Part shown: positions 24,100 through 44,468 of the stretch, piece after piece | Numbering within the stretch: position 1 is the stretch's first letter | How the letters are laid out: each line of letters begins with the position of its first letter | Assembly: GCA_965200965.1 (NCBI GenBank) | Contig: OZ241744.1 | Coordinates: 1,664,001 to 1,728,000, forward strand | Origin: an uncultured Candidatus Binatia bacterium | GTDB lineage: Bacteria; Desulfobacterota; Binatia; Bin18 | DNA: 64,000 nt | Direction of reading: 5' to 3' | Translations under genes and position numbers: made by a program | Notes under the pieces: model-generated | The model's database searches: none | Told to the model about the DNA's origin: nothing | The model's input: only the letters and a program-made list of their open reading frames with translations

Positions 24100-25029
24100 A
24101 TGCCCCTCCATCCAGAGGTTCAAAAAGCCCTGGCGGTGATGAACGCCACCATTCCGCCCCTGCACACCCTGCCGCCGCCGGAGGCGCGCAAACTCATTGA
24201 AGACATGCGCGGCCCCGCGGCAGAGCCCGAGGCGGTTGGTCGCGTTGAAAACCGCAACATTCCGGGTATAGCCGGCCCCCAGGCGGTACGGCTCTATACC
24301 CCAGAGGGGGACGGGCCGTTTCCCGTGCTGGTCTATTTTCACGGCGGCGGCTGGGTGCTCGGCAGTCCCAACACAGTTGATGCCTCGTGCCGGGCGTTGA
24401 CCAACTTGGCCGGCTGCATCGTTGTCTCGGCCAGCTATCGTCTGGCCCCGGAACACAAGTTCCCGGCCGCTATTGACGACTGTTATGCCGCCACCCGCTG
24501 GGTGGCGCTGAACGCCGCGGCCCTTGGCGGAGACACGGGCCGGCTGGCCGTTGGCGGGGAGAGCGCCGGCGCAAACCTGGCTACCGCGGTGGCCCTCAAA
24601 GCCGGCCAGCAGGGCATCCCCCGGCTGGCTTACCAACTGCTGATGTATCCGGTGCTCAACTACGCCTTTGACACGCCGTCCTACCACGACAAGGCCGAGG
24701 GCTATTTCCTGACCAGGGACATGATGGCTTGGTTCTGGAAGCAATACCTGGCCACCCCGGCCGACGGGCAGAACCCGCTGGCCTCGCCGCTCCGGGCCGC
24801 AGACCTCGGCGACCTCCCGCCGACCTTTATTGCCGCGGCCGAGTTTGACCCGTTGCGGGATGAAGCCGCGGCCTATGCGGCCAAGCTGGGAGAGGCCGGC
24901 GTGGCCGTGCAATACACCTGCTACGAGGGCCTGATCCACGGCTTTATGGGCATGGCCCCCGCGGTCGAACCGGCCAGGATTGCGCTTGAAGAAGCCGGCG
25001 CGACCCTCAAAGCGGCCTTTGCGGCATGA
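24100..25029 (+). CDS. HSL-family (Aes-like) esterase
   Basis: HGGGW, YRLAPEH, GESAG, DPLRDE, HGF. Confidence 0.94.
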   Translation: MPLHPEVQKALAVMNATIPPLHTLPPPEARKLIEDMRGPAAEPEAVGRVENRNIPGIAGPQAVRLYTPEGDGPFPVLVYFHGGGWVLGSPNTVDASCRALTNLAGCIVVSASYRLAPEHKFPAAIDDCYAATRWVALNAAALGGDTGRLAVGGESAGANLATAVALKAGQQGIPRLAYQLLMYPVLNYAFDTPSYHDKAEGYFLTRDMMAWFWKQYLATPADGQNPLASPLRAADLGDLPPTFIAAAEFDPLRDEAAAYAAKLGEAGVAVQYTCYEGLIHGFMGMAPAVEPARIALEEAGATLKAAFAA

Positions 25030-25074
25030 GTTGCCGGCGCTGGTTCAGCGGCACGGAGAGTCCGATGAATATTT

Positions 25075-25111
25075 ATTTCAATCCTCACCCAGCCCACAAG
25101 CCGGATGCTGT
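25075..25111 (-). repeat. Solitary variant CRISPR repeat
   Basis: ATTTCAATCCTCACCCAGCCCACAAGCCGGATGCTGT, 27/37 identical to the array repeat, hairpin retained. Confidence 0.85.
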
Positions 25112-25135
25112 TTTTACCCTGGCCCAGAGCGAGCG

Positions 25136-25411
25136 CTAGGGCCAGATAACCCGGTCTTCTTCGGCCAGGAAAGCGACCGAGCTGGCTGTGTCAACAAAGC
25201 GCTTCACATCCTCAAACTGCTCACGCTGGAGTTCGTCAGACGCCCATGCCTGCTCAAACGTGGCCAAATCCGGCCACGATAACTCGGCCACGCCGTCAAA
25301 CGCCGGTGTATCAGTCTCATAGGCTTCGGGGCAGACATGACACTGCACATAGCGGCGCAGACCGGGCGTTCTGGGCACCAGCGGCGCGTGTATATTCCGC
25401 CAATAGTCCTG
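25136..25411 (-). pseudogene. EthD-family protein, 5'-truncated at the first CRISPR repeat
   Basis: Reads QDYWRNIHAPLVPRTPGLRRYVQCH...FDGVAELSW...FVD; frame runs into the repeat and stops there, N-terminal segment absent. Confidence 0.85.
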
Positions 25412-28400
25412 GTTTCAATCCTCACCCGCCCTTACGGGCGGATGCTATATGCTCGAAGAAACTCTCCACGGGCGGCAACACCGGTTTCAATCCTCACCCG
25501 CCCTTACGGGCGGATGCTATCAATCATGGTTGCTCCTTCACCTGATGGTGCTTCAGTTTCAATCCTCACCCGCCCTTACGGGCGGATGCTATTGCCTCCT
25601 TGCTTCGATCGCCCCTGCTCGCCTGTGTTTCAATCCTCACCCGCCCTTACGGGCGGATGCTATGGCTCGCGGCGACGACCTGCTGATCTTGTCGCATGTT
25701 TCAATCCTCACCCGCCCTTACGGGCGGATGCTATAGTCGTGCTGTTTGAGGGCCGCTCACATATCAACGTTTCAATCCTCACCCGCCCTTACGGGCGGAT
25801 GCTATTAGTCGGACAGACATCCGAGCCAAAGCCGGGCACACCGTTTCAATCCTCACCCGCCCTTACGGGCGGATGCTATGCCCGGACTGGGCCCACCTTC
25901 TCGGCAACATCCAGCATGTTTCAATCCTCACCCGCCCTTACGGGCGGATGCTATGCCCGGACTGGGCCCACCTTCTCGGCAACATCCAGCATGTTTCAAT
26001 CCTCACCCGCCCTTACGGGCGGATGCTATGCCCGGACTGGGCCCACCTTCTCGGCAACATCCAGCATGTTTCAATCCTCACCCGCCCTTACGGGCGGATG
26101 CTATGTGAGCGGACAGAGTTGGTGATCGAGGCCGACCGGTTTCAATCCTCACCCGCCCTTACGGGCGGATGCTATTTGAACAGAGCTTCAGGTCAGCGGC
26201 CAGAGACTCGATGTTTCAATCCTCACCCGCCCTTACGGGCGGATGCTATACTGGAAGCACGACCACTGGCTCGACGGAAGGCAGTTTCAATCCTCACCCG
26301 CCCTTACGGGCGGATGCTATGGAGTGCGCCAGTCTTTGCCAGGCTGCCGGCGGTGTTTCAATCCTCACCCGCCCTTACGGGCGGATGCTATCGCCCCGTA
26401 GAACTCCAACATCTTTGACTTCTTGCTGTTTCAATCCTCACCCGCCCTTACGGGCGGATGCTATCCCAATCCTAGGATTCCCCCGGCCACGGCCGGGGGT
26501 TTCAATCCTCACCCGCCCTTACGGGCGGATGCTATAACCGCCCGGCGCGGGTTGCGGGCTATCGCCAGAAGGAGTTTCAATCCTCACCCGCCCTTACGGG
26601 CGGATGCTATGCCGGTGAACTTTATGGCTTTCAGTTCGCCCACACTGTTTCAATCCTCACCCGCCCTTACGGGCGGATGCTATGGGGCCCGGTGTACCGG
26701 CTCCTGTCGGAGTGCACCTGGTTTCAATCCTCACCCGCCCTTACGGGCGGATGCTATTCCCGCCAGGTCTCGGCGAGGCTCATCTCCCGCCGCCTGTTTC
26801 AATCCTCACCCGCCCTTACGGGCGGATGCTATGCCGACCGCCAGGAGAGATTGACATGAAAGATCTGTTTCAATCCTCACCCGCCCTTACGGGCGGATGC
26901 TATGAGCTGCTCGCGCTCGTCCAAATCCCGCCTCTGGTGTTTCAATCCTCACCCGCCCTTACGGGCGGATGCTATGGCCCGGCGGTGTAGGTCCGGCGCA
27001 AAAAAGAGCCGTTTCAATCCTCACCCGCCCTTACGGGCGGATGCTATGGTGGCGTTGGGCTAGATCGGTACATCCACCAGGTGGTTTCAATCCTCACCCG
27101 CCCTTACGGGCGGATGCTATGACCCCATCGGGCGGTTGGCGAACAGTCCCATCAGTAGTTTCAATCCTCACCCGCCCTTACGGGCGGATGCTATGTCGGC
27201 GGCAAGGTCAGTTTCAGTCTACGCCTGCCTGTTTCAATCCTCACCCGCCCTTACGGGCGGATGCTATGTTGCTACGCTAACCAAAAAAGGGACGCCCAGG
27301 AGCGTTTCAATCCTCACCCGCCCTTACGGGCGGATGCTATGTTGGAGCGCCGACCGATATTCCCGCGCCTGTGGAAGTTTCAATCCTCACCCGCCCTTAC
27401 GGGCGGATGCTATGGTCTACGTCCAGAGCGAGGTCTCCTGCAAGATGGAGTTTCAATCCTCACCCGCCCTTACGGGCGGATGCTATGGCCTAGGGCATGT
27501 TGCCCTCGCAGCAACTCTCAACGTTTCAATCCTCACCCGCCCTTACGGGCGGATGCTATGGGTCTACGACCGGGACGAGACCCCGGAAGAAAAAGTTTCA
27601 ATCCTCACCCGCCCTTACGGGCGGATGCTATGATGATCTACGCCAAGCTGGAAGAGAGCATGAGCGTGTTTCAATCCTCACCCGCCCTTACGGGCGGATG
27701 CTATGGCCATGACGGATGTTCCTCTTGATCCACTTCTGGATGTTTCAATCCTCACCCGCCCTTACGGGCGGATGCTATGCCGATGGAGCCATATAGGAGG
27801 CGCGGGGTCAATCCTAGTTTCAATCCTCACCCGCCCTTACGGGCGGATGCTATGAGCAGCAGAGGCGTCAGCGTGAACTTGAGTTGCAGTTTCAATCCTC
27901 ACCCGCCCTTACGGGCGGATGCTATGCAGGCCCGGCCTGGTTGGCGGTGATCCCCCCGCTGTTTCAATCCTCACCCGCCCTTACGGGCGGATGCTATGGT
28001 CATGGAGGCCGGGCTGGCGGACCTGTACGCTAAGTTTCAATCCTCACCCGCCCTTACGGGCGGATGCTATGGACCCCTGACTGGCTAGAATCCCCTGGTC
28101 ACGCTGGTTTCAATCCTCACCCGCCCTTACGGGCGGATGCTATGTCTATCATGCTTGCCTCCTCAATCCAGGATTGCCCGGTTTCAATCCTCACCCGCCC
28201 TTACGGGCGGATGCTATGTCCAAGAGTCAACTCAATACGAGATTGTAGACGTAGTTTCAATCCTCACCCGCCCTTACGGGCGGATGCTATGTGGACAGCC
28301 GAAGCTGCCGACCTTCACCAAGGGGTTTCAATCCTCACCCGCCCTTACGGGCGGATGCTATGATCATCTGATGGCTCATACTGCCTCCTCAATCCTAGTT

Positions 28401-31400
28401 TCAATCCTCACCCGCCCTTACGGGCGGATGCTATGTCGATATCGAGGGCATGAAACCCCTCGTCACCCTGGTTTCAATCCTCACCCGCCCTTACGGGCGG
28501 ATGCTATGTGCTCGCGTCAATAAGCGGGGATGGGTTATCAAAGTTTCAATCCTCACCCGCCCTTACGGGCGGATGCTATGGCCGGGTTCTATCGTAGCGA
28601 CGGTTATCTCTACCTGTTTCAATCCTCACCCGCCCTTACGGGCGGATGCTATGTTCAGATACTCCATAAAGGGGTCAACAGGGTCCGTGTTTCAATCCTC
28701 ACCCGCCCTTACGGGCGGATGCTATGTTCTTCTTGGGGTCAGGCTGTGTCAGGCTGAAACGTTTCAATCCTCACCCGCCCTTACGGGCGGATGCTATGCT
28801 GTCGCCCTCTACAGAGATCGAGTGGCTGTCCGCAGTTTCAATCCTCACCCGCCCTTACGGGCGGATGCTATGTAGTTAGCCTTGTGTTGTTCAAGTTCCC
28901 ACTGCTGTTTCAATCCTCACCCGCCCTTACGGGCGGATGCTATGGTCAGCCAAGCCGTCCGGGCGTTCAGGTCCTGGTGTTTCAATCCTCACCCGCCCTT
29001 ACGGGCGGATGCTATGTTTTAGCCCGATGTTGCCGAGGGTCAGGTAGTAGTGTTTCAATCCTCACCCGCCCTTACGGGCGGATGCTATGGCCACTTGGGA
29101 TGGGTCCCTCTGGCGTATGCCTGGTTTCAATCCTCACCCGCCCTTACGGGCGGATGCTATGGCTCAGTCGCACCAAACGCTCGCCAGCTACGCCATGTTT
29201 CAATCCTCACCCGCCCTTACGGGCGGATGCTATGGGCATAACCGCTCAGGAGGGTAGCACCATGCAGAGGTTTCAATCCTCACCCGCCCTTACGGGCGGA
29301 TGCTATGTCCTCAGTGTAGCGAACATTTGACCCAGGTCCGAGTTTCAATCCTCACCCGCCCTTACGGGCGGATGCTATGCAGAATATAACCGGCCGCGTC
29401 TCGTTTCACGCAAGGTTTCAATCCTCACCCGCCCTTACGGGCGGATGCTATGGTCCGAAGCTGAGCTACTTACAGAATGACGCAAAAGTTTCAATCCTCA
29501 CCCGCCCTTACGGGCGGATGCTATGCGGACCTGGGGCTGCCCAAGCCCACCATCACGAGGGTTTCAATCCTCACCCGCCCTTACGGGCGGATGCTATGTT
29601 GAGGTGTTCGTCCGCAACAACTATGGGAGCTAGTTTCAATCCTCACCCGCCCTTACGGGCGGATGCTATGGGGCATGGCGATGATCGGTTTTTTATCGAG
29701 CACAAGTTTCAATCCTCACCCGCCCTTACGGGCGGATGCTATGACGCCCGGCCGGAAATACTCCCGACAGTATATGTGTTTCAATCCTCACCCGCCCTTA
29801 CGGGCGGATGCTATGTACTGTCTTGCTGCCAGGAACGTCGCCATAAAGGAGTTTCAATCCTCACCCGCCCTTACGGGCGGATGCTATGTCGAAGCGAAGG
29901 AGGACGAGTGATGTCGGTTATCAGTTTCAATCCTCACCCGCCCTTACGGGCGGATGCTATGGCGATGCTGCACGACCACAAGCCGTTGCCGTAGCTGTTT
30001 CAATCCTCACCCGCCCTTACGGGCGGATGCTATGGTGATACAATCTGCAACCAGGACGTGACCTACACGTTTCAATCCTCACCCGCCCTTACGGGCGGAT
30101 GCTATGATTGGCGGTCCTACGGCTCCGGCGACGCGGCGGACGTTTCAATCCTCACCCGCCCTTACGGGCGGATGCTATGCTCAACTTGCTGAGCGTTATA
30201 TTGTTCTGGTGGTGTTTCAATCCTCACCCGCCCTTACGGGCGGATGCTATGTTCAACACCGGCCTGAAAATCGCGGACATTGCTGAGTTTCAATCCTCAC
30301 CCGCCCTTACGGGCGGATGCTATGTTCAATTTCAACGACCAGATGCGCGGGTTCATCCGTGTTTCAATCCTCACCCGCCCTTACGGGCGGATGCTATGTT
30401 GGGTGCTGTCTTGGCCCGCCGGAACCACGGGGTTTCAATCCTCACCCGCCCTTACGGGCGGATGCTATGTTCTCCTGCACACCCGACCGCCTGATTGTCG
30501 GGCAGTTTCAATCCTCACCCGCCCTTACGGGCGGATGCTATGAAGGACTTCGGAGTCGGGTTGTTGACTACGGAAGGTTTCAATCCTCACCCGCCCTTAC
30601 GGGCGGATGCTATGTTGGGGTTGTTGAGAATTTGAACGATACGTTCAAGCGTTTCAATCCTCACCCGCCCTTACGGGCGGATGCTATGTCCGGCCAGGTC
30701 GCTGGCGGCCAGGCTGCTGAAGTCGTTTCAATCCTCACCCGCCCTTACGGGCGGATGCTATGGCCAAAACAATCGAGGATTTGCCGGAGGTAACATGTTT
30801 CAATCCTCACCCGCCCTTACGGGCGGATGCTATGGACGCCGCACACTGTATCCCGAGGCTTTGAGCGTGTTTCAATCCTCACCCGCCCTTACGGGCGGAT
30901 GCTATGGCTTCTCAGGGATTTTGGCGAGCTTCTGGCTGACCTGTTTCAATCCTCACCCGCCCTTACGGGCGGATGCTATGATCTCGTGAGAGAGAATGCT
31001 GTCCACCAGCCGCAGTTTCAATCCTCACCCGCCCTTACGGGCGGATGCTATGAAGTCAAGCTCATGCGCCCCGGCCGCCTGTGAGGGTTTCAATCCTCAC
31101 CCGCCCTTACGGGCGGATGCTATGTCGCAGTTGATATCCTCTGGGGTGAGCGTGTCGAGGTTTCAATCCTCACCCGCCCTTACGGGCGGATGCTATGATC
31201 TATTGTTTTGGAAGGGGCTTGACAAGGTTGGGGTTTCAATCCTCACCCGCCCTTACGGGCGGATGCTATGGGTAGCCCAAGATCATCATTGCTACTGCAC
31301 CCATGTTTCAATCCTCACCCGCCCTTACGGGCGGATGCTATGGGGCTTCTCCGCTACAGTGAAGAGAAGCAGCAGGTGTTTCAATCCTCACCCGCCCTTA

Positions 31401-34400
31401 CGGGCGGATGCTATGTAGCAATGCGCCCACACATGGGCGCTCACCTGGGAGTTTCAATCCTCACCCGCCCTTACGGGCGGATGCTATGCTCCTTCGCGTG
31501 GGGAGCCGCGGTTGTCGTAGCGGTTTCAATCCTCACCCGCCCTTACGGGCGGATGCTATGGTCGTGTACATCGCCGGCGCATGCCACAACTCCATGTTTC
31601 AATCCTCACCCGCCCTTACGGGCGGATGCTATGTTGAGCGCGCGTATAACCGCCTCGGATGGCTCAAGTTTCAATCCTCACCCGCCCTTACGGGCGGATG
31701 CTATGGCGATGAGAGAGGCGGTCGCCTACGGTCTGGAGGCGTTTCAATCCTCACCCGCCCTTACGGGCGGATGCTATGATGTTGTAGGCCAGAACGCGGT
31801 TGCGCCGGAAGGGTTTCAATCCTCACCCGCCCTTACGGGCGGATGCTATGTGTAGATTGGCTGTCGTCTCAAGCGGGCCTAGGGGTTTCAATCCTCACCC
31901 GCCCTTACGGGCGGATGCTATGTTGATCCTCTCGCTGCGGTTTACGGACAGGATGAGTTTCAATCCTCACCCGCCCTTACGGGCGGATGCTATGGGTGGA
32001 GGCGCGCAAGAATGAGTAGCCATTCTATGTTTCAATCCTCACCCGCCCTTACGGGCGGATGCTATGGCGCAAAGCCACCAAACGCTTGCGTCGTATGCCA
32101 TGTTTCAATCCTCACCCGCCCTTACGGGCGGATGCTATGGCCGCCGTGGCCGCCCACGCACCAAGACCGATTGGGTTTCAATCCTCACCCGCCCTTACGG
32201 GCGGATGCTATGAAGATATGCTGGGAGGTGCTAGCCGAGGAATGCCGGGTTTCAATCCTCACCCGCCCTTACGGGCGGATGCTATGTCCCTTATCCTGGC
32301 ATGTATCGGGTCAATCTCAAAGTTTCAATCCTCACCCGCCCTTACGGGCGGATGCTATGTTCACCGCTGGGTCGAGCATCGAGGTCTTCGTGCGGTTTCA
32401 ATCCTCACCCGCCCTTACGGGCGGATGCTATGGCCATGCGGCTATCCGTCATATCGTCAACGAGATGTTTCAATCCTCACCCGCCCTTACGGGCGGATGC
32501 TATGGTCATATGTTAGGCTCTCTCCAAATGGTGGGGTGGGTTTCAATCCTCACCCGCCCTTACGGGCGGATGCTATGCCTGAGCTCAAGGACCGAATCCA
32601 GGCGCTGGGGACGTTTCAATCCTCACCCGCCCTTACGGGCGGATGCTATGTCGTCCTTGGGTTCGGCGGATACCTACTCGTGGCCGGTTTCAATCCTCAC
32701 CCGCCCTTACGGGCGGATGCTATGTGCTTGTGAGCGACGCCATGCGGAACAAATACCAGTGTTTCAATCCTCACCCGCCCTTACGGGCGGATGCTATGTA
32801 CGGACTCATGCGTTTGTTGCCATAGCCTTGGAGTTTCAATCCTCACCCGCCCTTACGGGCGGATGCTATGGCCCTCTTGCTTGGCCGGGGCCGCATCACC
32901 ATCCAGTTTCAATCCTCACCCGCCCTTACGGGCGGATGCTATGGAGTCCATCGGATCATAGACGTTGCCAGGAGTCAGGGTTTCAATCCTCACCCGCCCT
33001 TACGGGCGGATGCTATGGGTCTATACAAGCGGCGGCGGAACCGGAAGCAGTGTTTCAATCCTCACCCGCCCTTACGGGCGGATGCTATGGAGCGCAAGGC
33101 GTCAATCACATATCACCTGCCATGTTTCAATCCTCACCCGCCCTTACGGGCGGATGCTATGGCGCCGGCGGTGCGGCGGAGTTTGATGTTTCATGTGGTT
33201 TCAATCCTCACCCGCCCTTACGGGCGGATGCTATGTCGACCGACCATTCTAGCAGTGGGCGGTATAACCAGTTTCAATCCTCACCCGCCCTTACGGGCGG
33301 ATGCTATGCCCTAAATGCTCTTCGGTCAGCCGCTTTTCCCACGGTTTCAATCCTCACCCGCCCTTACGGGCGGATGCTATGTTGGGTCAAACTATCTGGT
33401 CGTGATCGAGCAGATACCGTTTCAATCCTCACCCGCCCTTACGGGCGGATGCTATGATGGGACTCCTCGTATCGCATTGACCGGACGAGATGTTTCAATC
33501 CTCACCCGCCCTTACGGGCGGATGCTATGGGTTGGCGAGGCACGGGCATACTGCCTGACGATGGAGTTTCAATCCTCACCCGCCCTTACGGGCGGATGCT
33601 ATGACCAAGGTCAAAGCCACCAAGGTCAAAGCCACAGAGTTTCAATCCTCACCCGCCCTTACGGGCGGATGCTATGGCGAACATGTTTTCCCGTGGGAAA
33701 AGCGGCTGACCGTTTCAATCCTCACCCGCCCTTACGGGCGGATGCTATGGCCGGGGGGCCACAAGAAAGGAGCCGTTATGGCTGTTTCAATCCTCACCCG
33801 CCCTTACGGGCGGATGCTATGGCCCTTTTCACTGTTGCAGGCGGGACACAAGAGTTGTTTCAATCCTCACCCGCCCTTACGGGCGGATGCTATGGCTCAA
33901 GTCCGCCGCTGACACCATCACCGGAAAGTAGTTTCAATCCTCACCCGCCCTTACGGGCGGATGCTATGGCGCGATCATCTTCGGATTTCATCATCCGGGC
34001 GGTGTTTCAATCCTCACCCGCCCTTACGGGCGGATGCTATGTGCTTACCAAACCCACGCACCCAGGAGCGTAGTTAGTTTCAATCCTCACCCGCCCTTAC
34101 GGGCGGATGCTATGGCTATTATGCATGTAGGAGGTGAGGTGAGGTGACGTTTCAATCCTCACCCGCCCTTACGGGCGGATGCTATGCTCAAGACGCCCCG
34201 CGCTGTGGCGGACCTGGTGAGCGTTTCAATCCTCACCCGCCCTTACGGGCGGATGCTATGACTATGAGCTCGCCCTGCGGGGTATCAACGAGATGTTTCA
34301 ATCCTCACCCGCCCTTACGGGCGGATGCTATGCCGGCTATGTCCGTGGGCTACTGGAAGCGCATAAGGTTTCAATCCTCACCCGCCCTTACGGGCGGATG

Positions 34401-34693
34401 CTATGGCGGGCATGGTCGAACGGCGCTTTGTCCGTGACGTTTCAATCCTCACCCGCCCTTACGGGCGGATGCTATGAATGATGCTCTAGTCGGGCGCATA
34501 GTGTGGCACTGGTTTCAATCCTCACCCGCCCTTACGGGCGGATGCTATGCTGGTTCTTGGTGTCCTTCCCACATTTACGATTGGGTTTCAATCCTCACCC
34601 GCCCTTACGGGCGGATGCTATGCGCGGAGAGGCTGGACGCCAACGCGCTGGCCGAGGTTTCAATCCTCACCCGCCCTTACGGGCGGATGCTAT
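25412..34693 (-). CRISPR. Type I-C CRISPR array, 128 repeats and 127 spacers
   Basis: Invariant 37-bp core GTTTCAATCCTCACCCGCCCTTACGGGCGGATGCTAT (+ strand), unit period 71-75 bp; minus-strand repeat ends ATTGAAAC with a CCGCCC-GTAA-GGGCGG hairpin; leader and cas2 lie at the high-coordinate end. Confidence 0.99.
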
Positions 34694-34887
34694 GTCTTTC
34701 TCACCCAAGCCCTTGACCTGCCTGGGGTTTTTTCCCCGTTTCCGCGATCCCCTCTCTGGCAGGTCTGGAATCTGCACGCGGGAGATCAAGGATAACGAGA
34801 AAATCGTTATTATTCGGGTGCTTACGGTCAACGCGATCCTCCCCGCTGTTGCGCCGTCGCTCCAGGTTCGCACATGTGGATAGCCGC
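34694..34887 (-). promoter_or_regulatory. CRISPR leader
   Basis: Non-coding gap between cas2 and the array; CGCGATCC direct repeats at 34743 and 34832, related inverted GGTTCGCA at 34865, AT-rich middle. Confidence 0.85.
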
Positions 34888-35178
34888 TCAGGCCAGGAGC
34901 GGGTCATCAAAGTTGACCGAGGGGTTCACCCCAAAGTGCCGACAATGTTGGTCTTTGGGTTCTCGCAGACGATAAATACGCAAATTGTCCTCCTTGTCGT
35001 CAATGCACCTGACAAGGTCCCGAACCAGTCGCTCGTACTGCACCTGATCGACCGCGCATTCAAAGACAGAATACTGAACCCGCTGGCCGAAGTTCTTGCA
35101 CACCTGAGCGACCTTGCGCAGGCGTCGCTTGCCGGCGTCCGTTTCCGTTGCCACATCATAGGCGACTAACACCTGCAT
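34888..35178 (-). CDS. cas2: CRISPR-associated endoribonuclease Cas2
   Basis: VLVAYDV, RRLRKVAQVCKNFGQRVQYSVFEC; 96 aa. Confidence 0.97.
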   Translation of the reverse strand: MQVLVAYDVATETDAGKRRLRKVAQVCKNFGQRVQYSVFECAVDQVQYERLVRDLVRCIDDKEDNLRIYRLREPKDQHCRHFGVNPSVNFDDPLLA

Positions 35179-35229
35179 ATCCCGCTGATCCTTACCCAGC
35201 CCCAGGGCCGGATATTGCCCAGCCTGCCC

Positions 35230-36261
35230 TTAGCGATAGACAAAGGGCAGGTAGTCTTCCATGTCTCCACGCAGCACCCGCGCCAGGAGACGCGCCTGAA
35301 TGTGGGGAATCAGTCCAAGCGGCACTTTCTGTTCAAGAACAACATGCTGGACCTCTTCCTGTTTGCGCTTCTGGTAGGCAACAATGACCTCCTTGCGTCC
35401 GTCGTCGGTCAGGGACACAGCCCCGCCCGGACGGCTGACAAAATGCGCGGCAGTCAACTGCCTACGGTTAATCAGGGTCAGGGCCAGACGCTCGGCAATC
35501 ACCGACCGCAGTTCTTCCATCAGGTCCAAACCGAGAGCCGGCCGCCCCGGGCGCAAGGTGTGCAGAAAGCCCATCTGCGGATCAAGCCCGACTCCCTCAG
35601 CCGCGGCCACGCAGTCGCCCAAGAGCAGGGCATACAGAAAGGACAAGAGCGCGTTGGTCGGGTCTTTGGGTGGCCGACGGCTCCGACCGTCAATGCCAAA
35701 GGTGGCCCGGTCTTCCCGAATGAGACACGAGAAGGACTGGAAATGCCGACGGGCAGCATCGCCTTCAAAGCCCCGGAGTTGATCCAGCCCGTCGGCAGTC
35801 GCCAGCCTGCCCAGCGACGCCGCCAGGGAGCGGGCGGTTGCTTTGAGCGCGGCTTCGTCTTCGGGCGTTTTTGCCTCACGCGCCGCCCGCATGGTGATGT
35901 GGCGGGTATTCTGGATTTTGCCGGCAACGATATGCCGGGCGAGGGTCAGGGTGCGGCTCGGGTCACTCACCGCTTCGTGCTGGGCCTTGCGGAGCAGCAC
36001 ATTGCCCGAGACCGGCCCTTCCAACCGGGCCTTGAACCGCCCGTTGCGGTCCAGGAAGCTCACCGACCGCCCGTCATCGGCGCAGCGGTGCAACACGGCC
36101 GGGCTGATGAGCACATTGCCAAAGCAGACCAAGCCGCCGATGTGATGCAGCGGGACTTGCAGCTTGGTTGTGCCCTCAAGCTCGACGCGGAGCGTTTCGT
36201 GATCCAGCCGCACATACGCCTGGGGGGTCGTGACATATAAGGTATTGAGCAATTGGCGCAT
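35230..36261 (-). CDS. cas1: Type I-C Cas1 integrase
   Basis: MRQLLNTLYVTT, SGNVLLR, RRPPKDPTNALLSFLY, GFLH, LDLMEELR. Confidence 0.97.
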   Translation of the reverse strand: MRQLLNTLYVTTPQAYVRLDHETLRVELEGTTKLQVPLHHIGGLVCFGNVLISPAVLHRCADDGRSVSFLDRNGRFKARLEGPVSGNVLLRKAQHEAVSDPSRTLTLARHIVAGKIQNTRHITMRAAREAKTPEDEAALKATARSLAASLGRLATADGLDQLRGFEGDAARRHFQSFSCLIREDRATFGIDGRSRRPPKDPTNALLSFLYALLLGDCVAAAEGVGLDPQMGFLHTLRPGRPALGLDLMEELRSVIAERLALTLINRRQLTAAHFVSRPGGAVSLTDDGRKEVIVAYQKRKQEEVQHVVLEQKVPLGLIPHIQARLLARVLRGDMEDYLPFVYR

Positions 36262-36266
36262 GGATC

Positions 36267-36902
36267 TCAATCGGCGGCGACAAACAGGGCGCGGGCAAAG
36301 CCTTGCAGCCGGGCTTTTTCGCCCACCACCGCCGGCAGACACGAATCCTGTAAGGAACAGCGGTCGCAGCGGGCGTCATTGACCGCGGCGGGCAGCCGGC
36401 GGCGGGCCAGCATGTGCCGAATCTCGGCCACGCTGCGTTCCACCTGCTCCCGCAATTGGGCTGAGAACTCAAGCTCACGCCGACGCCGTGAACTGTGATG
36501 GAAGATCGCCCCTCTGGGGACCGCCTGCCCGGTCATTTCTTCGAGACATACGGCCTGGGCACAGAGTTGCAGATCGTCGTGCGTTTTCTGGCGGCGCGGG
36601 CCGTGCTTATACTCGACCGGGTAAGGAACCTCGCCGTGAAACTCGACCACATCCGCCCTGCCGACCAGCCCCAGCCGGTGGGACCACAGCGGCAAGGCCC
36701 GCTCAACTCGCACCCCGCTGAGGGTCTCGCCTACCGGCTCATCAACCTGCTCGTGGACCGCCCGCCCCCGAAGGGTGTACAGATTCTCATCAAAGGTCTG
36801 CTCCTGGTGAATCAGGGCGCACTGCCGCGGGCAGTAGCTATAGTGCTCCAGGGCCGAGATCATGATGGGGTCGTCGTCTGACCAAGTGGTTGAATTGGAC
36901 AC
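36267..36902 (-). CDS. cas4: Cas4 nuclease
   Basis: ISALEHYSYCPRQ, ADVVEF, PVEYKHG, QLCAQ, CDRCSLQDSC. Confidence 0.96.
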   Translation of the reverse strand: MSNSTTWSDDDPIMISALEHYSYCPRQCALIHQEQTFDENLYTLRGRAVHEQVDEPVGETLSGVRVERALPLWSHRLGLVGRADVVEFHGEVPYPVEYKHGPRRQKTHDDLQLCAQAVCLEEMTGQAVPRGAIFHHSSRRRRELEFSAQLREQVERSVAEIRHMLARRRLPAAVNDARCDRCSLQDSCLPAVVGEKARLQGFARALFVAAD

Positions 36903-36906
36903 ATCC

Positions 36907-37791
36907 TTATCCTATCAGGCGTTTCAACGCCACGCCCTCAGGAATGTCGACTTCTTCCACCGCCACGCTGTAATCGTCAAAATCACGCGGCACGGTGACG
37001 CCTTCTTTCAGCCCCGGCCGAATACGCGCAAAAAGGTCATGGGCATGCGCATTGCCGATTTGCGAGTCATGTTTGAATACATACAAGCCTCGGGTCGCCA
37101 TCTCGCCGCGGGCAGCCGAGCGGTCGTGCTCAAACATGTTGCTGAGCGCTTCCCACAGGAGCGCGAGGTCGTTATCGGAAAAGCCGGTTTGCGCTGCCAG
37201 ATGTGCCGACACAAAACCACGCGCCACATAAAGGCCGTAGGGCACAGTGTGTTTGCGGCCCATAGTCCGATTGTCTCCCTCTTGCTTTTCGGCTTCCGCT
37301 TCTGTCGCTACCGCCATGCGGGTGATCGAGTGTTCCTGAGCAGTAATAGAATCAACCGAGCGCGCAAATGTCAGTTGAACCGGGCCTCGCACCTGGCCGC
37401 AGTTCACACCCGTAGACATCACTGCGCCAAAAGTTCGCACATCGTAGAAGTTCTTGCACATCCAGGCCCGCGCCTCATCAACTTTTTCTCCGCCTTTGCG
37501 CTTTTTGCCGTCGGCCTTGAGTGCGTCGCCGGCACCGATGGCTTCATACGCGCGTTCGTGCTGTTTGTTGAGGATCGCTTTTTCCTTTACATAAATCTCG
37601 CAGGGCGGCTGCTCCGCTTTCACCAGACCGACGTAATTGCGGACTTTTCGTTTCAGACTTACGTCGGTCACAAGGCCCCGCCCGGTCTCAGCATCGACAC
37701 GGGGCAGATTACCCGCATCGGGATCACCGTTAGGGTTGCCGTCTTTCACGTCGAACACCAGGACAAAGTCGTACCGATTCTCGATTGCCAT
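36907..37791 (-). CDS. cas7c: Cas7c (Csd2)
   Basis: [44 protein letters not shown]. Confidence 0.97.
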
Positions 37792-37813
37792 GCTTACGCT
37801 CCTTTCAATGAGG

Positions 37814-39523
37814 TCAGCTTGATTTTTTGAAAAAATCCTGCCGCTGGTGGTAATAGCCGATAGCGAAGCGTCCCTGGTCTTCCAAAGCCAGTTGCCCTGG
37901 GAAATCGTCTATGCCGTCCATGATTTCACCGAGGCGTTTCTCCAGATTCACCACCCGGCCAGGATTCTCCAGTTTAGAGAGATGATGGTTTTTCAGCTTC
38001 AGCAGGGTCGAAAACACGATCACCGGCGTACTTGACGCCGCTCCGTAGTAGCGGTCGCGTATAGTGGCATTGAGGCCAGGGTTCGCCTCCTCTTGGATTT
38101 TCTCCAGCACCGCAAACAACCGGCCTAGCCGGTAGCCAGTGTTCATATTGGCTTCATCCAGAGACATACCGATCTCCTCCTTCATGCTCAGGTTTGAATG
38201 ACGTGTCGTTCGGTTGATGCAGGCTTTTATCAGCGCAGCGCGTGGATATGTCACTTGGTGCTCGGCGCGAATCCGGCGCACGGCAGCCGAGAGCAGCGTC
38301 TGCGGATAGGGCAGACCCGCGAGAATACTGCGCATCAACTCGCCCCCGAGGTTCGGCGGAATATTGTCCGCCTTGCCTTGGATTGCCACGGCCTTCAGCA
38401 GACGAAACACTGAAAGATAGGGCGGGTCACGCGGCGAACGTTCAATAGTCAGATCGTCAAGGTGCTGCTTAATCCGCCCGGCCATTTCGGCCACCGTAGC
38501 GTTGTGCCAGAAACGGATGGCGACCCGAGCTGCATTGGGAGAGATCCCTAATGCAAAAAATTTTGCTTTCCCCTCATTGTTCTCTAACAGGCCATGCGCA
38601 ATAGCGGCGTAGAGACTTTTCACCGCCTGCACATTACGGTCGGGGTCGTCTTTGGGCGGTTCGCCAAAAATGTCCACGGGCAGGGTCTCAAACTCCACCG
38701 GGCGGTCAGCCCAAAACACGACAGTGGCATCGCCGACTTGGAGACGTTGCGGTGAATCTTTGCGGAGGAGATAATTGAGCGCTGTGGTGTAGCTGAATGC
38801 TGTGCGCTTGCCGACAGGCGCGTTTGCGCCCTGCTTTTTCCCATATGAGCAGAACGCGGGCTTATCAAACGAGACGATGTTGGCTCCTGATGTTTGCGCA
38901 CCCCACACCCCCTTGATCGCCGCGTGCAGCTGCTCAACTTCGTCCGTCTCGCCCGTCACCAAGCACAATTCGCCTGCGCCTTGCGCGGTTTGATCTGCCG
39001 TGATGAACTCCGCGACTGCGGCACGCTGGCACACGAGGTCTATGTCGCCATGTAGGCGGAACGTCACATTCGGATTATTGTCGATAATCTCACTCCATGC
39101 ACTGTATTGTGACAAGGCTCCGATGTCCATACCCTGGAGGAAGGATGACACCGCTTGCACTCCCTCATCGCTCTGCGCTGTGGGAGAGAGCAATTCGATT
39201 TTGTCCCTAAAGGATTGGTGTTGCCTGGCAACGCGCTCAGGTTTCCCCTTCGTATCAACCCCCAGCGCGTATTCAACAGTATCCCACAGGAGATTTGCTT
39301 CGATGTTGACCGTTCTCTTCACCCCCTGCGGTACCAGAAATGCCTTCGCCCGTTTTTTCCTGCCCTCCCCCTCGCATGTATCTTCAATCTGTATCAGCTT
39401 TCCCTGGGCGTCAATTTCGAGGATGAACGGAATCTCTTTCCACTCGAAGCCCAGAGGAGCAACGACGGTGTCTGGCTCAGCCCTTTTGCGTTTGTAATAG
39501 TCACGGAGTGCTTGGAGAATCAT
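37814..39523 (-). CDS. cas8c: Cas8c (Csd1)
   Basis: [51 protein letters not shown]. Confidence 0.96.
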
Positions 39524-40251
39524 CCTCGTACCTCCTCACTGTTCCAGGTTGGAATGTCTACTACACCGTTCACCAGCCTCGCGCGGAAAAAACGCGGCTT
39601 GGGATCAGCGGGATTCCGATAATCCATATCGTACAGCATGTAGCCGAGTTCCCGCGTCTCGGCGATCGGACGCACTTCTGAATCTTTCGGCTCTACCAGG
39701 CGAAAGTCCGCCGCAAACTCACGACAGCCTAGATATGGCTGGTTCACGCACTGACCCTTGGCCGCGCGTCGCTCGAACATCGTCATGAATTTCACCGCCT
39801 GGTTTGGGGCGTCGTCTCTATCAGTCCCACCCGTATTAGCCGTTTGTTTGCTCAGGTGCGGGAAGTTCGGCCTGTATGAAGCGGGATCGCGCAACTCAAA
39901 CGACGCATGAATGCGGTATTGTACATCACGCAGAAACAGCCCTGCACGCTGTTGGCGATCGTCTTCAATGAAGATACCTAACCGACCAACCCCGGTTCGC
40001 ATTGCACTTTCGGCGTTGCGCGTTGAAGCGACGCAGCGGACCTCGTTACGGCGCAGATTGATCCATTTGATAGGGCTGAGCACTTCAATCCTGCTTACCT
40101 GCCAGCGTATCGCAGGTTTCCACAGGACAGACTCAAATATGGCTCGCGCCGCCGACGGTGTCATCACATCGTAACTGACGCGCTCGACCTTCATCTCTGG
40201 CCGCGTGAAACATGCGAAGTCGCCGCTGACTTCAAGGCAGTACGTTTTCAT
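39520..40251 (-). CDS. cas5c: Cas5c (Cas5d) crRNA-processing subunit
   Basis: GDFACFTRPEMKVERVSYDVMTPSAAR, RRNEV, QPYLGCREF. Confidence 0.97.
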   Translation of the reverse strand: MKTYCLEVSGDFACFTRPEMKVERVSYDVMTPSAARAIFESVLWKPAIRWQVSRIEVLSPIKWINLRRNEVRCVASTRNAESAMRTGVGRLGIFIEDDRQQRAGLFLRDVQYRIHASFELRDPASYRPNFPHLSKQTANTGGTDRDDAPNQAVKFMTMFERRAAKGQCVNQPYLGCREFAADFRLVEPKDSEVRPIAETRELGYMLYDMDYRNPADPKPRFFRARLVNGVVDIPTWNSEEVRG

Positions 40252-40260
40252 TGCTCTTCC

Positions 40261-42522
40261 TTAGCTGATCAAATCACTCGGATTCAGATTCGTCTCGTCC
40301 ACGAGGACCCCTAATTCCGGGTGATACAGCACCTCCGCAGTCTGCGCGAACATGTCGGAATACACTTCACGCACGTCACCCCTGCGCGACATCTGTTGGA
40401 ATTGGTAGTCCGGTAGCGACACGGTGTAGCGCTGGAGCCTCCGCATAAGCCGCCGCGACGGCCCGTCTTGGCGCAGCTGACTGATCAAGGCGGGGCTCTT
40501 GTCATAACGCACGATAATGCTGCGATAGCCCGATTCGTCAATCAACCGAAAACGCTGGGCCGCGGTACGGAACTGCACTTTCAACGGATCGTCGCCTTCG
40601 CCCTGGGGCATAAGCAATCCGGTTCTGCCGTTGCCGTGTATGTTGTGCTTGTCGAGAGACGGCGCTTTACAGTAGAAGTGCTGGAAATACTTCTTGAACA
40701 TATCGCGCTTGAACAGGTCGGCTATCGTCAACGGCTGGGAGCTCGCCCCTGCCAGCAACGAAACGGTAGTGTCTTCTGCACGGCGCAGATGTCCGAGAGG
40801 GGCACGGTTGGGTGGCACAAAGACGACGACCTGACCCCGATCCATCTTCCCCTCACGGTTACATCGCCCTGCCGCTTGCGCAATCGAATCCAGACCCGCA
40901 AGCGCACGGTACACAATGGGAAAATCCAGGTCGACGCCCGCCTCTACCAATTGGGTACTGACAACTCGTACATCTTCCCCGGTAAGCAGCCGCCGTTTGA
41001 TAGCAGCAATGACGCGCGACCGATGCTCACCACACATCAGGGCGGATAAATGAATCGTCCCTTCAGGCATGCGCCGGTGGAGTTCACGGGCGTCTGCACG
41101 CGAATTGACAACGGCAAGGACAGTAGCATGGTGCTGAATCTGGAGGGCGAGATCGTCCCATTCCTGCCGCTGATGGAAGTCCTCCGGCAGTGACACAGTG
41201 ACGCGCTCCAAATCGCGGTACAGGGTATCCGGGTCGGTGATGATTTCTCGCGTCCCCTCAAGGCCGCGAATCCTGTGTTGAAAACTGTGCAGCCGTCCCA
41301 ACTCTGGTTGGGTCGCGGTTGAGATGACGAAACTGACCCCATAGTAGCGAACAAGCAGATTCATCACGTCAAGAATCGGTTGCAGGAATTCAGGGGGGAG
41401 CAACTGGGCTTCGTCAAGGACCACCACACTGTTCACGATCTTATGCAGCTTGCGGCAACGGCTCGTTCTGGAGGCGAATAGTGACTCGAAGAACTGAACG
41501 TTGGTCGTGACAATGAGCGGAGCATCCCAATTCTCTGCCGCCAAGCGACTTTTCCCTGTCTCTTTTTCGGGATCGAGATTGCTGTGATGCTCAATCACTG
41601 CATCAGAAAAGATTGAGCGGAACACATTGGCGGTCTGCTCAATAATGCTGGTGTAGGGAATGGCATAAATCACCCGCCGCTTGCCGTGGCATTTTGCATG
41701 TTCCAGGGCAAAGGCGAGGCTCGATAGGGTCTTGCCCCCTCCGGTGGGGACGGTCAAGGAAAACAATCCCGGCGCTTCATGCGCCTTGTCCCGACACTGC
41801 CGCAGCACGGTGGCGCGGGTACGGTTCACGCGCGTCTCTTCCACACCTGAAAACCTTTTTTCAATCCAGGCATTAAACCGAGCGAGCATATCTGGAATCG
41901 TAGGCGCGCCGCCCCGCTGTGCGGCCTTGTCCGCATCCATAAACGCTTCGGTATCCAAAAAATCCGCGTCTACCAGGCAGGAAAACAAGAGACGTACCCA
42001 CAGCGCAAAGCCTTCTGATCCTCCCACCAATGGGCTGTTGGGCTTAGATTGTTTAAGAATTGAAGGGGGGATCGGCTGGCACAGTGCTCGTTCCACATGG
42101 CTCGGATCATCGAGGCGCGCTTTGAGTGCCGCTCCACGGGTCTCGCTCGTATGCCAATCTGGCAGGCCGGTGTGATGACCGGCGATGATGTAGGCGAGAA
42201 TCCGGCCGTGCAATCTGAATTGTTTTATGGCGTGCTGTGCGCCGGCAGTGGAATGATCAACCCGTCCGGCCTGTCCTTCAAGATGAGCCTCGGTATCGTA
42301 TCCAGATTGGGACCTGATACGCCTTTGAAATTCCTTGCTATATTTTCCCAGATCATGCCATGTCCCCGCTGGCCGCGCCCAATCTCCACTCCCAAAGGCG
42401 CACGCGAACTCGTCGGCGCGTTGGCCGACACCGCGGAGGTGGTCTTCCAAGTCATGCAAATCGAAGTCATTGTCAACCTGACGGATGTGCGCAATGAAGG
42501 CGGGTGGCTCTTTGGTCCTCAT
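40261..42522 (-). CDS. cas3: Cas3 HD nuclease-helicase
   Basis: WHDLGK, GHHTGL, LVDADFLDT, PTGGGKT, DEAQ, SATQP, QAAGRCNR. Confidence 0.97.
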   Translation of the reverse strand: MRTKEPPAFIAHIRQVDNDFDLHDLEDHLRGVGQRADEFACAFGSGDWARPAGTWHDLGKYSKEFQRRIRSQSGYDTEAHLEGQAGRVDHSTAGAQHAIKQFRLHGRILAYIIAGHHTGLPDWHTSETRGAALKARLDDPSHVERALCQPIPPSILKQSKPNSPLVGGSEGFALWVRLLFSCLVDADFLDTEAFMDADKAAQRGGAPTIPDMLARFNAWIEKRFSGVEETRVNRTRATVLRQCRDKAHEAPGLFSLTVPTGGGKTLSSLAFALEHAKCHGKRRVIYAIPYTSIIEQTANVFRSIFSDAVIEHHSNLDPEKETGKSRLAAENWDAPLIVTTNVQFFESLFASRTSRCRKLHKIVNSVVVLDEAQLLPPEFLQPILDVMNLLVRYYGVSFVISTATQPELGRLHSFQHRIRGLEGTREIITDPDTLYRDLERVTVSLPEDFHQRQEWDDLALQIQHHATVLAVVNSRADARELHRRMPEGTIHLSALMCGEHRSRVIAAIKRRLLTGEDVRVVSTQLVEAGVDLDFPIVYRALAGLDSIAQAAGRCNREGKMDRGQVVVFVPPNRAPLGHLRRAEDTTVSLLAGASSQPLTIADLFKRDMFKKYFQHFYCKAPSLDKHNIHGNGRTGLLMPQGEGDDPLKVQFRTAAQRFRLIDESGYRSIIVRYDKSPALISQLRQDGPSRRLMRRLQRYTVSLPDYQFQQMSRRGDVREVYSDMFAQTAEVLYHPELGVLVDETNLNPSDLIS

Positions 42523-42622: not shown

Positions 42623-44221
42623 TTAGCGCGTGGTGCTTCGTCTGAGCAGGCGGGCCAGCAGTTGCACTTCCTCTACTTTGAAGATGAAGCCCAGGGTCAG
42701 ATACAGCCCGCTGCCGGCCAGCAGAATTGCGGCCAGGTGCAACATCGGAAGCGGGGCCAGCAGGGCCCCCGGGGTAGCGGCCAGCCCTCGGCTCAGCACG
42801 AACAGACAGGTCCCGAGGGCCGCGGCCAGCAGAAAATGGGTGGCGAACTGACGGGCGAGCAGGGCTTCGTTCAGCGGGCCGCGGCGGTGGCGGAAGATGG
42901 CGTACAGCACGAGGGTATTGAGGCCCGAGGCCAGCGAGATCATCAGCGCAATGCCCCAGTGGCCCCAGACCTGCATCAGCAGCCAGCCGCCAAGGGCGTT
43001 CAGGCCGACCGAGGCCAGGCCGACGAGGGCCGGGGTGCGGGTGTCTTTGGTGGCGTTGAACAGCCGGACCATGACCTGGCTGGTCCCATAGCCGACAATC
43101 CCGACGCCATAGGCCATGAGTGCCTGGCTGGTCAGGGTGACATCTTCGGGTGTGAACTGGCCCCGCTGGTAGAGCAGGCGGGTAAGCGGCGTGGCGAGGC
43201 CGACCACGACCGCGGTGGCCGGCAGGGCTACAGCAAACAGCAGCGACAGGCCGGCGGTGGCTTTGTCCTTGAAGGCCGGCTCGGCCCCGTCGGTCTGGGA
43301 GAATTGAACGTGTCGTCTTCCTGTCGATCTGATGACACCTTCACTCCTTTGGACCGCGGACAGCTCGGTCAGCAAGACGGTATACACCGGCACGGCAAAC
43401 AGGCTGACCGGCAGCAGGAAGATGCGAAACGCATAGGCCAGGGCCGAGATGCTGCCCTCGGCCAGGGTTGAGGCCAGGGCGCGGGCAATACAGGCGTTGA
43501 TCGGCACGACCGCAGTCGCTATAAACGCCCCCAACGCCAGCCCGCCCATCTCACGCAGGGCCGGATGGTGAAAGGCGAGGCTGGGACGATAGCGCAGCCC
43601 GAGCCGGGCCAGGGCCGGGATTTGTACCGCTAACTGGACCAAGCTGCCGGCCACCACCCCGACGGCCAGGCTGCTGATGCCGCAGGACCCGCTCAGGCTC
43701 AGGGCACAGCCGATCATCACCACATTGAAGAACACCCCGGCGTACTCGGGCATGGCGTAGTGCTCCAGGCTGTTCAGCGTGCCTTTGACCACGGCCAGCA
43801 GGCAGTGCAGAACCAGCATGGGCAGCATCAGCCGAAACAGGAAGACGGCCAGATGGTGGTCGTCGCCACTCAGGCCGGGGGCGGCCAGGGTCAGGATGGC
43901 CGGGGCGGCCAGATAACAGCCGGCGGCCAGGGTCAGGGCGATGACAAAGGCCGCGGTCAGGGCCAGGCTGAAGACCGTGTTCAACTCGGCGGCGCGGTAG
44001 CGGGTGATGACCGGCACGAAGAAATTGCTCAGTACCCCGCTGAAAAACACGGTCTGGATCATTTCCGGCACATTATAGGCCACCAGAAAGGCATCGGTCA
44101 GCCGTGAGGCACCAAACAGAGCGGCCTGGACGGCTTCGCGGACAAAGCCCAGCGGCCGGCTGAGCAGGGTAGCAATGACGATGGGGCGGCCCTTGCGGAC
44201 CAGGCTGGCGCGGGAAGACAC
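42623..44221 (-). CDS. murJ: Lipid II flippase MurJ (MviN)
   Basis: LSRPLGFVRE, DAFLVAY, FVPVIT, LYQRGQF, DTRTP; start uncertain (GTG at 44221 or 44251). Confidence 0.92.
   Translation of the reverse strand: MSSRASLVRKGRPIVIATLLSRPLGFVREAVQAALFGASRLTDAFLVAYNVPEMIQTVFFSGVLSNFFVPVITRYRAAELNTVFSLALTAAFVIALTLAAGCYLAAPAILTLAAPGLSGDDHHLAVFLFRLMLPMLVLHCLLAVVKGTLNSLEHYAMPEYAGVFFNVVMIGCALSLSGSCGISSLAVGVVAGSLVQLAVQIPALARLGLRYRPSLAFHHPALREMGGLALGAFIATAVVPINACIARALASTLAEGSISALAYAFRIFLLPVSLFAVPVYTVLLTELSAVQRSEGVIRSTGRRHVQFSQTDGAEPAFKDKATAGLSLLFAVALPATAVVVGLATPLTRLLYQRGQFTPEDVTLTSQALMAYGVGIVGYGTSQVMVRLFNATKDTRTPALVGLASVGLNALGGWLLMQVWGHWGIALMISLASGLNTLVLYAIFRHRRGPLNEALLARQFATHFLLAAALGTCLFVLSRGLAATPGALLAPLPMLHLAAILLAGSGLYLTLGFIFKVEEVQLLARLLRRSTTR
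43291..43356. repeat. Imperfect 66-bp palindrome inside murJ
   Basis: Arms 43291-43317 and 43331-43356; core TGAACGTGTCGTC / GATGACACCTTCA pairs 11 of 13. Confidence 0.6.
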
Positions 44222-44468
44222 GCCGGCACTGTAGCAAGGCCGAGCGGACACGTCAGCCGGACCGCCCCGGGCTGGGGTCGGCGGCTTTGGGGTCGTGGAA
44301 GTCGGGGTCGGTCTGATGCGCCGGTGGTGGGAAGTGTGACCGGGCGAACTTGGGTCAGGTTTGCCAGAGAGGTCGAACCCGGATCCATCTGATCAGGAGA
44401 TTCCCGTGATTACCTGCCCTGTCCCTGCTCCCCTATTTGCTTGAAGAGCAGCGCTCTGTTCCACGGCG

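Follow-up and report, generated by a model that had tools for sequence, protein, structure and literature searches.

The CRISPR locus and its junction with ethD

The analysed stretch of 64,000 nucleotides (the window) carries a type I-C CRISPR-Cas locus between murJ and an esterase gene (Table 1). In terms of gene content it has the type I-C set, with cas3, cas5c, cas8c, cas7 (Csd2), cas4, cas1c and cas2 present and cas6 absent; cas1c, cas7/Csd2, cas8c and cas5c score above their profile cut-offs. Sponge metagenomes are among the runs that contain the stretch; no RNA data set is listed among them.

At its trailer end the array meets the remnant of an ethD gene. On the crRNA strand CAG GAC TAT TGG adjoins the terminal repeat with a gap of 0, and a frame of 91 codons stays open from there to its stop at 25136. 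This frame matches the EthD family (PF07110 from profile position 10, 55.8 bits against a cut-off of 22) and also TIGR02118. Full-length EthD at this locus has 228 amino acids in two domains, and the intact protein of the relative G007 matches in two stretches; the remnant holds most of the second domain, with 137 of the 228 codons lost. The preliminary description of the locus had reported a perfect, non-degenerate trailer repeat running directly into the interior of an ethD gene in the same direction. Both points are borne out, the terminal one of the 128 identical repeats being equal to the consensus. Nor is there a full identical ethD elsewhere in the genome, where the closest paralogue has 42% identity.

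A perfect terminal repeat is also found in G007, G002, G059 and G063, so it is not rare in this family and is not diagnostic alone. The remnant has 3 non-synonymous and 6 synonymous branch-specific changes (1 and 7 in G007), too few to date the loss. No promoter-like or terminator-like sites were seen in window 24900-25500.

Table 1. Features of the window around the CRISPR locus and the ethD remnant.
Feature	Position	Strand	Observation
Esterase (hormone-sensitive lipase family)	24100..25029	+	synteny anchor below ethD
Solitary variant repeat, older	25075..25111	-	differs from the array repeat at 10 positions and from the G007 repeat at 6; hairpin retained
Native ethD 3' flank	25112..25135	-	in part common to G007
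ethD remnant, final 91 of 228 codons plus stop	25136..25411	-	native position, open frame; 87% identity to the intact G007 allele
Putative former protospacer, ~36 nt (length estimated from spacer lengths)	25376..25411	-	TTC just upstream in G007, G006, G005 and G001; PAM gone, repeat end in its place
Trailer (terminal) repeat, consensus sequence, fused to ethD	25412..25448	-	junction also in metagenome contigs
Type I-C CRISPR array	25412..34693	-	128 identical 37-nt repeats, 127 spacers
Leader	34694..34887	-	kept in G007 and G004; last base C
Type I-C cas operon, cas3-cas5c-cas8c-cas7-cas4-cas1c-cas2	34888..42522	-	profile hits
murJ	42623..44251	-	synteny anchor; immediately followed by ethD in G002

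Several other repeat-like sequences lie in and around the locus. In three congeners (G002, G005 and G006) the place of the variant repeat is taken by some 5 kb that carry E1/E2 2-oxoacid dehydrogenase genes and lie between ethD and the esterase; window 25030-25135 lacks this segment. Between cas1 and cas2 there is a decayed repeat (window 35179-35229), with a clearer copy in G007, G020, G056 and G063. The murJ-cas3 interval of G007 (L037) has two variant repeats in the orientation opposite to the array, separated by a spacer-length gap; the pair is possibly a regulatory mini-array, and the window retains only a trace of it. Elsewhere in the genome, four further lone repeat-like copies were found (891596, 970930, 1452279 and 2495268), three of them immediately before start codons; the PAM scoring given below includes none of the four.

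Intact alleles and the extent of the deletion

An ethD orthologue is present in five of the seven congeners searched. It directly follows murJ in G002, with no CRISPR locus between the two genes. ethD is therefore native to this place, and the two genes became separated by the CRISPR locus or by other DNA. In G007, a type I-C array occupies the same place and an intact ethD is found 50 bases beyond its trailer; the flanks are about 90% identical, and relative to this genome the deletion in the window amounts to 461 bases (137 codons).

The residue before the junction is Phe in all 19 orthologues fetched, encoded by TTC in 10 and by TTT in 9. Among congeners, TTC precedes the junction in four of five, including the closest (G007, 87%): G007, G006, G005 and G001 read GAG TTC directly followed by CAG GAC, and G002 has TTT. 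Within the G007 segment from the array to the ethD stop, TTC occupies 12 of 733 positions. A metagenome scan for closer ethD alleles gave 77 loci, the best 81% identical, and one of these served as an extra allele.

Contigs of other strains also cross the junction. Those of X3 and X4, both from one study, bridge it with at least 31 letters on each side, and they contain 37 letters of repeat and their own substitutions; contigs of X1, X7 and X9 extend 26-30 letters into the repeat. A further strain, X10/X12, has 37 differences in 1078 bases (96.5% identical) and its match runs only one base into the repeat position, which implies that its codon before the junction ends in C. On the X12 contig the first repeat follows 439 bases further on, and the X10 contig has 475 bases remaining. 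The extra 439 bases are probably made up of 411 ethD bases and 28 bases of leader sequence. In this strain, too, the variant repeat lies beside the longer allele; it therefore predates the fusion and does not mark where an oversized spacer ends.

The expectations of the preliminary description were borne out: the missing codon is one for Phe in every orthologue fetched, intact alleles with TTC immediately before the junction occur just below a longer array, and sequence spanning the junction exists in X3 and X4. With the data from relatives given below, the junction in the window is almost certainly PAM-defined.

Repeats of the same family behind TTC in relatives

A search of the family genomes with the repeat-end pattern gave matches in 34 of 55, mostly with one to five copies. 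Junctions were scored by the triplet that precedes them in repeat-free orthologous alleles. For 17 of the 22 junctions entered, one or more alleles lacking the repeat could be aligned; TTC was the commonest triplet at 10 of these 17, against 1.46% and 1.53% at downstream and upstream control positions. Without ethD, 9 of 16 are TTC-exact (binomial 5e-13, or 5e-7 at a fivefold background), and of the 7 sites selected before any of their empty alleles had been looked at, 4 are exact (2e-6). Junctions that share an intergenic region are not independent, and five fall in two regions; by locus, 10 of 14 are exact. Related genomes can also have an event in common, and an allele counted as "empty" may in some cases have been filled once and then lost its repeat (L259, MFS region). 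For one site the score was taken from allele L283 and not from L229, which has eight extra AAAC-type bases.

The ten TTC-exact junctions are ethD, a coding site in G007, rlmE, GYD site 1, the array end of G059, a tRNA flank and four more intergenic sites. The other seven comprise one that is off by one, two that are partly TTN, two that are clearly different (GGC; GAC/GGC) and two array ends that are weak or different (G004 and G056); some of the seven align poorly. The five unscored junctions are the MFS solo repeats, the G007 array end, two genomic copies (891596 and 1452279) and the variant repeat at 25075. Also outside the score, since all alleles carry the repeat or no orthologue was found, are L130/L161, genomic copy 970930, L162, L239, L240, L242, L131 and the array ends of G063 and G002. 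Neither does the scored set include L129, L132 and L232 or the repeat ends of G008, G015, G018, G020, G043 C205, G066, G019, G021, G070 and G023.

The scored repeats are mostly lone and distant from cas genes. Their polarity is always the spacer polarity, and lone repeats track the array-repeat sequence of their lineage. At most clean sites, TTC and 12-31 upstream bases are replaced and not duplicated, and the repeat end is joined to the first base after the PAM, as expected of a spacer-protospacer recombination product.

Three sites illustrate the geometry. The G007 coding site (L241:1081-1117, C1 near 1283600) has a lone repeat in place of 31 bases ending in TTC, with the frame kept over 409 codons; its empty allele lies in the window's own genome at 2949465-2949495. 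Upstream of an amidohydrolase gene, 12 bases, the purine-rich ribosome-binding stretch among them, have given way to the repeat, whose GAGGA now sits seven bases ahead of the start codon and probably stands in for the lost site. In four alleles of a gene that we take, by its protein sequence, to be rlmE, TTC is kept and is followed by five bases resembling the target start and then by the repeat.

In terms of sequence, the ethD fusion is one member of a recurring class spread across the chromosomes of relatives, which can be counted by before-and-after alleles.

A few minor observations belong to these lone repeats. The 409-codon G007 protein with in-frame repeat codons looks TIR-like by eye. 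Where a lone repeat precedes a start codon, AAAC-like copies of the repeat end, from zero to several in number, often come after it (L164-L178, L144, L229, L244 and the G007 cas1-cas2 gap), possibly the result of slippage that tunes the distance from GAGGA to the start codon. L162 (G064) has a pair of lone repeats at a distance of 700 bases; the sequences behind them are nearly identical, so that the region is a repeat-bounded tandem duplication. The possibility of a solitary repeat unit (Racr) on a mobile element was discarded, since the scored sites lie in orthologous chromosomal regions common to repeat-free relatives.

Origin of the junctions

Comparison of alleles establishes that a deletion occurred, where it ends, that intact alleles have TTC there, and that nine further junctions in relatives are built in the same way. 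As to how they arose, the reading that we favour, with a probability of about 0.56, is that a spacer was acquired from ethD and then recombined with its own source, which made the fusion through a deletion of at least 439 bases ending exactly behind the TTC PAM. Cas4-Cas1-Cas2 would take a PAM-trimmed piece of ethD and place it behind a repeat. Spacer and protospacer, some 35 identical bases in direct orientation, could then recombine. In cis, everything between them would be lost, that is, the older spacers, the start of ethD and the PAM. In trans, pairing would copy the repeat alone into the target, the upstream side being closed by short or no homology, and the product would be a lone repeat that replaces or follows the PAM elsewhere. 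Either product would leave no PAM beside the target, which would no longer be attacked and would survive self-targeting; for the cell, this would be an escape from autoimmunity. The five target-like bases between TTC and repeat at rlmE are as a trimmed single crossover would leave.

Some evidence counts against this reading. Thirty-five bases is short for RecA. The postulated self-spacer was never caught, with none of the 22 junction sequences matching any of 535 spacers apart from one 13-nt chance hit; a matching spacer would have been consumed in cis, or possibly lost in trans. Moreover, TTC is missing from the exact position at 7 of the 17 junctions, including the ends of the G004 and G056 arrays, and the spacer overlaps described below do not agree on TTC.

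The first step, acquisition from the neighbourhood, does occur in the family. The DNA around arrays is described as a hotspot of self-acquisition (PMC5737086). In G004, the leader-side spacer of a collapsed three-repeat array (L042:14488-14523) matches cas7 of four relatives, with TTC upstream in four of five hits, and the genome has lost the cas3-to-cas1 stretch that held the target (cas5-cas8c-cas7-cas4 are absent). In G056, the leader-side spacer of another collapsed three-repeat array (L158 minus 3350) matches cas1, with TTC upstream in two of three relatives, and the 8 kb fetched lacks the targeted part of cas1.

Both genomes show the classical outcome, resembling known self-targeting escape (PMC6990116, PMC7708048, 10.1101/860999). 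Escape routes described so far are loss of target, PAM, spacer or cas genes (PMC6990116, PMC7708048), and in type I-C self-targeting of P. aeruginosa the deletions are bidirectional with random ends, while the main escape is spacer loss (10.1101/860999). In classical escape, as these sources present it, the target is removed or mutated with random ends (PMC6990116, PMC7708048, 10.1101/860999), whereas here the repeat replaces the PAM and the protospacer is kept to the base. The neatly kept protospacer differs from the P. aeruginosa outcome, which counts against self-spacer recombination, and the fusions may be rare recombinants merely selected by interference.

An accident of the integrase itself is the next candidate. 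Cas4-Cas1-Cas2 would trim a still-attached chromosome end at the PAM, half-site integration would join it to the spacer side of a repeat, and replication or repair would fix a cis deletion or a trans lone repeat, with no need for a free spacer, RecA or autoimmunity. The identical PAM-exact junction and polarity would result, and the absence of a matching self-spacer and the intact protospacer would be accounted for. Type I-C Cas4 is reported to recognise the GAA strand of the PAM and to cleave independently of half-site integration, and the non-PAM end is reported to go to the leader site (10.1101/2022.05.30.494039). The end products alone cannot distinguish direct joining from self-spacer recombination. 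However, the five-base near-duplication at rlmE is easier to obtain by crossover than by integrase joining, and no such product was found described in the literature covered. We regard this route as credible but on the whole unlikely.

A chance deletion, or microhomology end-joining, that ended by luck at the repeat boundary behind a Phe codon is quite improbable. The trailer flank is unstable in the genus (G004 lacks ethD and the esterase, and the G007 esterase has a deletion), one base (C) is common to the repeat end and TTC, and some junctions elsewhere are not at TTC. Such an event would nonetheless have to stop precisely where a repeat ends, as about 2 of 72 positions do, and also at one of the few TTC positions of the segment (12 of 733), and it leaves the nine other TTC-exact junctions among 16 unexplained, which largely refutes it.

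Less probable still is that the repeat behaves as a tiny mobile element, moved by a transposase or by a Cas1 that prefers TTC, with the ethD fusion as an adjacent deletion. Lone repeats do occur at many unlinked sites, and the near-duplication at rlmE would fit, but most clean sites show replacement instead of duplication, a constant target duplication is absent in the set examined, and the invariable spacer polarity and the resemblance of lone repeats to the array repeat of their lineage also speak against it.

Finally, the alternative raised in the preliminary description, an oversized spacer of about 300 bp (DNA moved between two array repeats, the variant repeat and repeat 1), and likewise a misassembly, can be set aside: 300 bases do sit between two repeat-like sequences of equal orientation, but ethD holds its ancestral place between murJ and the esterase, the longer X10/X12 allele already has the variant repeat alongside, and contigs of other strains span the junction with their own substitutions. 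A CreA-like or regulatory mini-array, with two repeats and a short spacer pairing with a cas or toxin promoter, was also rejected, the interval being a 300-bp native gene end.

Self-spacer recombination, our preferred reading, can be placed beside several known systems. Recombination between spacers and phage is cited in 10.1101/2020.10.09.333658. In that phage-CRISPR case (Varble et al. 2019, via 10.1101/2020.10.09.333658), spacer-length homology between array and target likewise serves as the crossover; there the partner is phage and the products are transducing phage, and here the partner would be the host chromosome, with fixed deletions and lone repeats at PAMs as products. Ectopic repeats are reported in excess in CRISPR-positive genomes, where they are read as copies dynamically gained and lost and are attributed to repeats being recombinogenic (Shmakov et al., 10.1101/2023.03.03.530964). 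Our lone repeats also stand in CRISPR-positive genomes, and their PAM-exact position points to a Cas-defined origin. Solitary repeat units of mobile elements, such as RacrIC1, act as anti-CRISPR RNAs, and no origin for them was found in that source (PMC10651486). These too have one repeat of the host subtype followed by non-array sequence, but they inhibit Cas and lie in phages and plasmids near acr genes (PMC10651486), whereas the repeats here are in core host genes (rlmE, oxidoreductases). No paper on repeats fixed at chromosomal PAMs was found in the literature covered, outside which most subscription papers lie.

For Cas12a, a perfect terminal repeat is reported to yield an extraneous guide (PMC6610086). 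Similarly, a consensus terminal repeat with its downstream sequence could give a guide here; the extraneous crRNA was demonstrated for type V-A (PMC6610086), and the putative I-C guide would match intact ethD behind its PAM. One may then speculate that CRISPR-Cas acts as a recurrent editor of the host chromosome that stamps its own repeat over PAMs, with a guide from the stamped site directed against the unstamped TTC allele; we consider this doubtful. If true, a transcribed lone or terminal repeat with the old protospacer could guide attack on the unstamped allele, and the stamp would be hard to undo by gene transfer or might even spread to new alleles by homing. It would protect its site, could supply a ribosome-binding site or in-frame codons, and would be the source of solitary repeats.

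Some of the known ectopic and solitary repeats serve as regulators or anti-CRISPR RNAs, with no specific origin given in the sources covered. PAM-exact before-and-after alleles in one family make the origin of ectopic repeats testable. The junctions would offer a sequence signature for past self-acquisition and a PAM read-out for uncultured systems, and self-spacer recombination would be a new exit from autoimmunity that retains both cas genes and target sequence. In terms of host genes, the alleles show changes made by CRISPR, with one truncation, one in-frame insertion and repeats at the place of a former ribosome-binding site.

As for the spacers of the window array, all 127 being younger than the fusion is consistent with the data: none is shared with G007, and the first spacer of X3 differs from that of the window. 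X3 and X9 give no cover on the trailer spacers of the window and are uninformative there. No self-matching I-C spacer was found in the window's genome, where the only long hits of window spacers are overlapping spacers of other arrays. The genome has three more arrays with other repeats (2072249, 2819953 and 3365834, with 23, 224 and 86 copies), some of whose spacers overlap spacers of the window array. Reading the PAM from five independent spacer overlaps gave TTC twice, TTC off by one once, TAC once and ATG once (a 13-nt overlap).

Lastly, spacers 7, 8 and 9 (window 25843-26067) are identical 38-mers. Spacers 20-127 (window 26796-34693) all end in C on the crRNA strand, which is the case neither for spacers 1-19 nor for the spacers of G007; the unit that is duplicated has apparently grown from 37 to 38 bases. 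Two overlaps with spacers from other arrays bear on this point, and in both the source carries A or T at the position of the spacer-final C.
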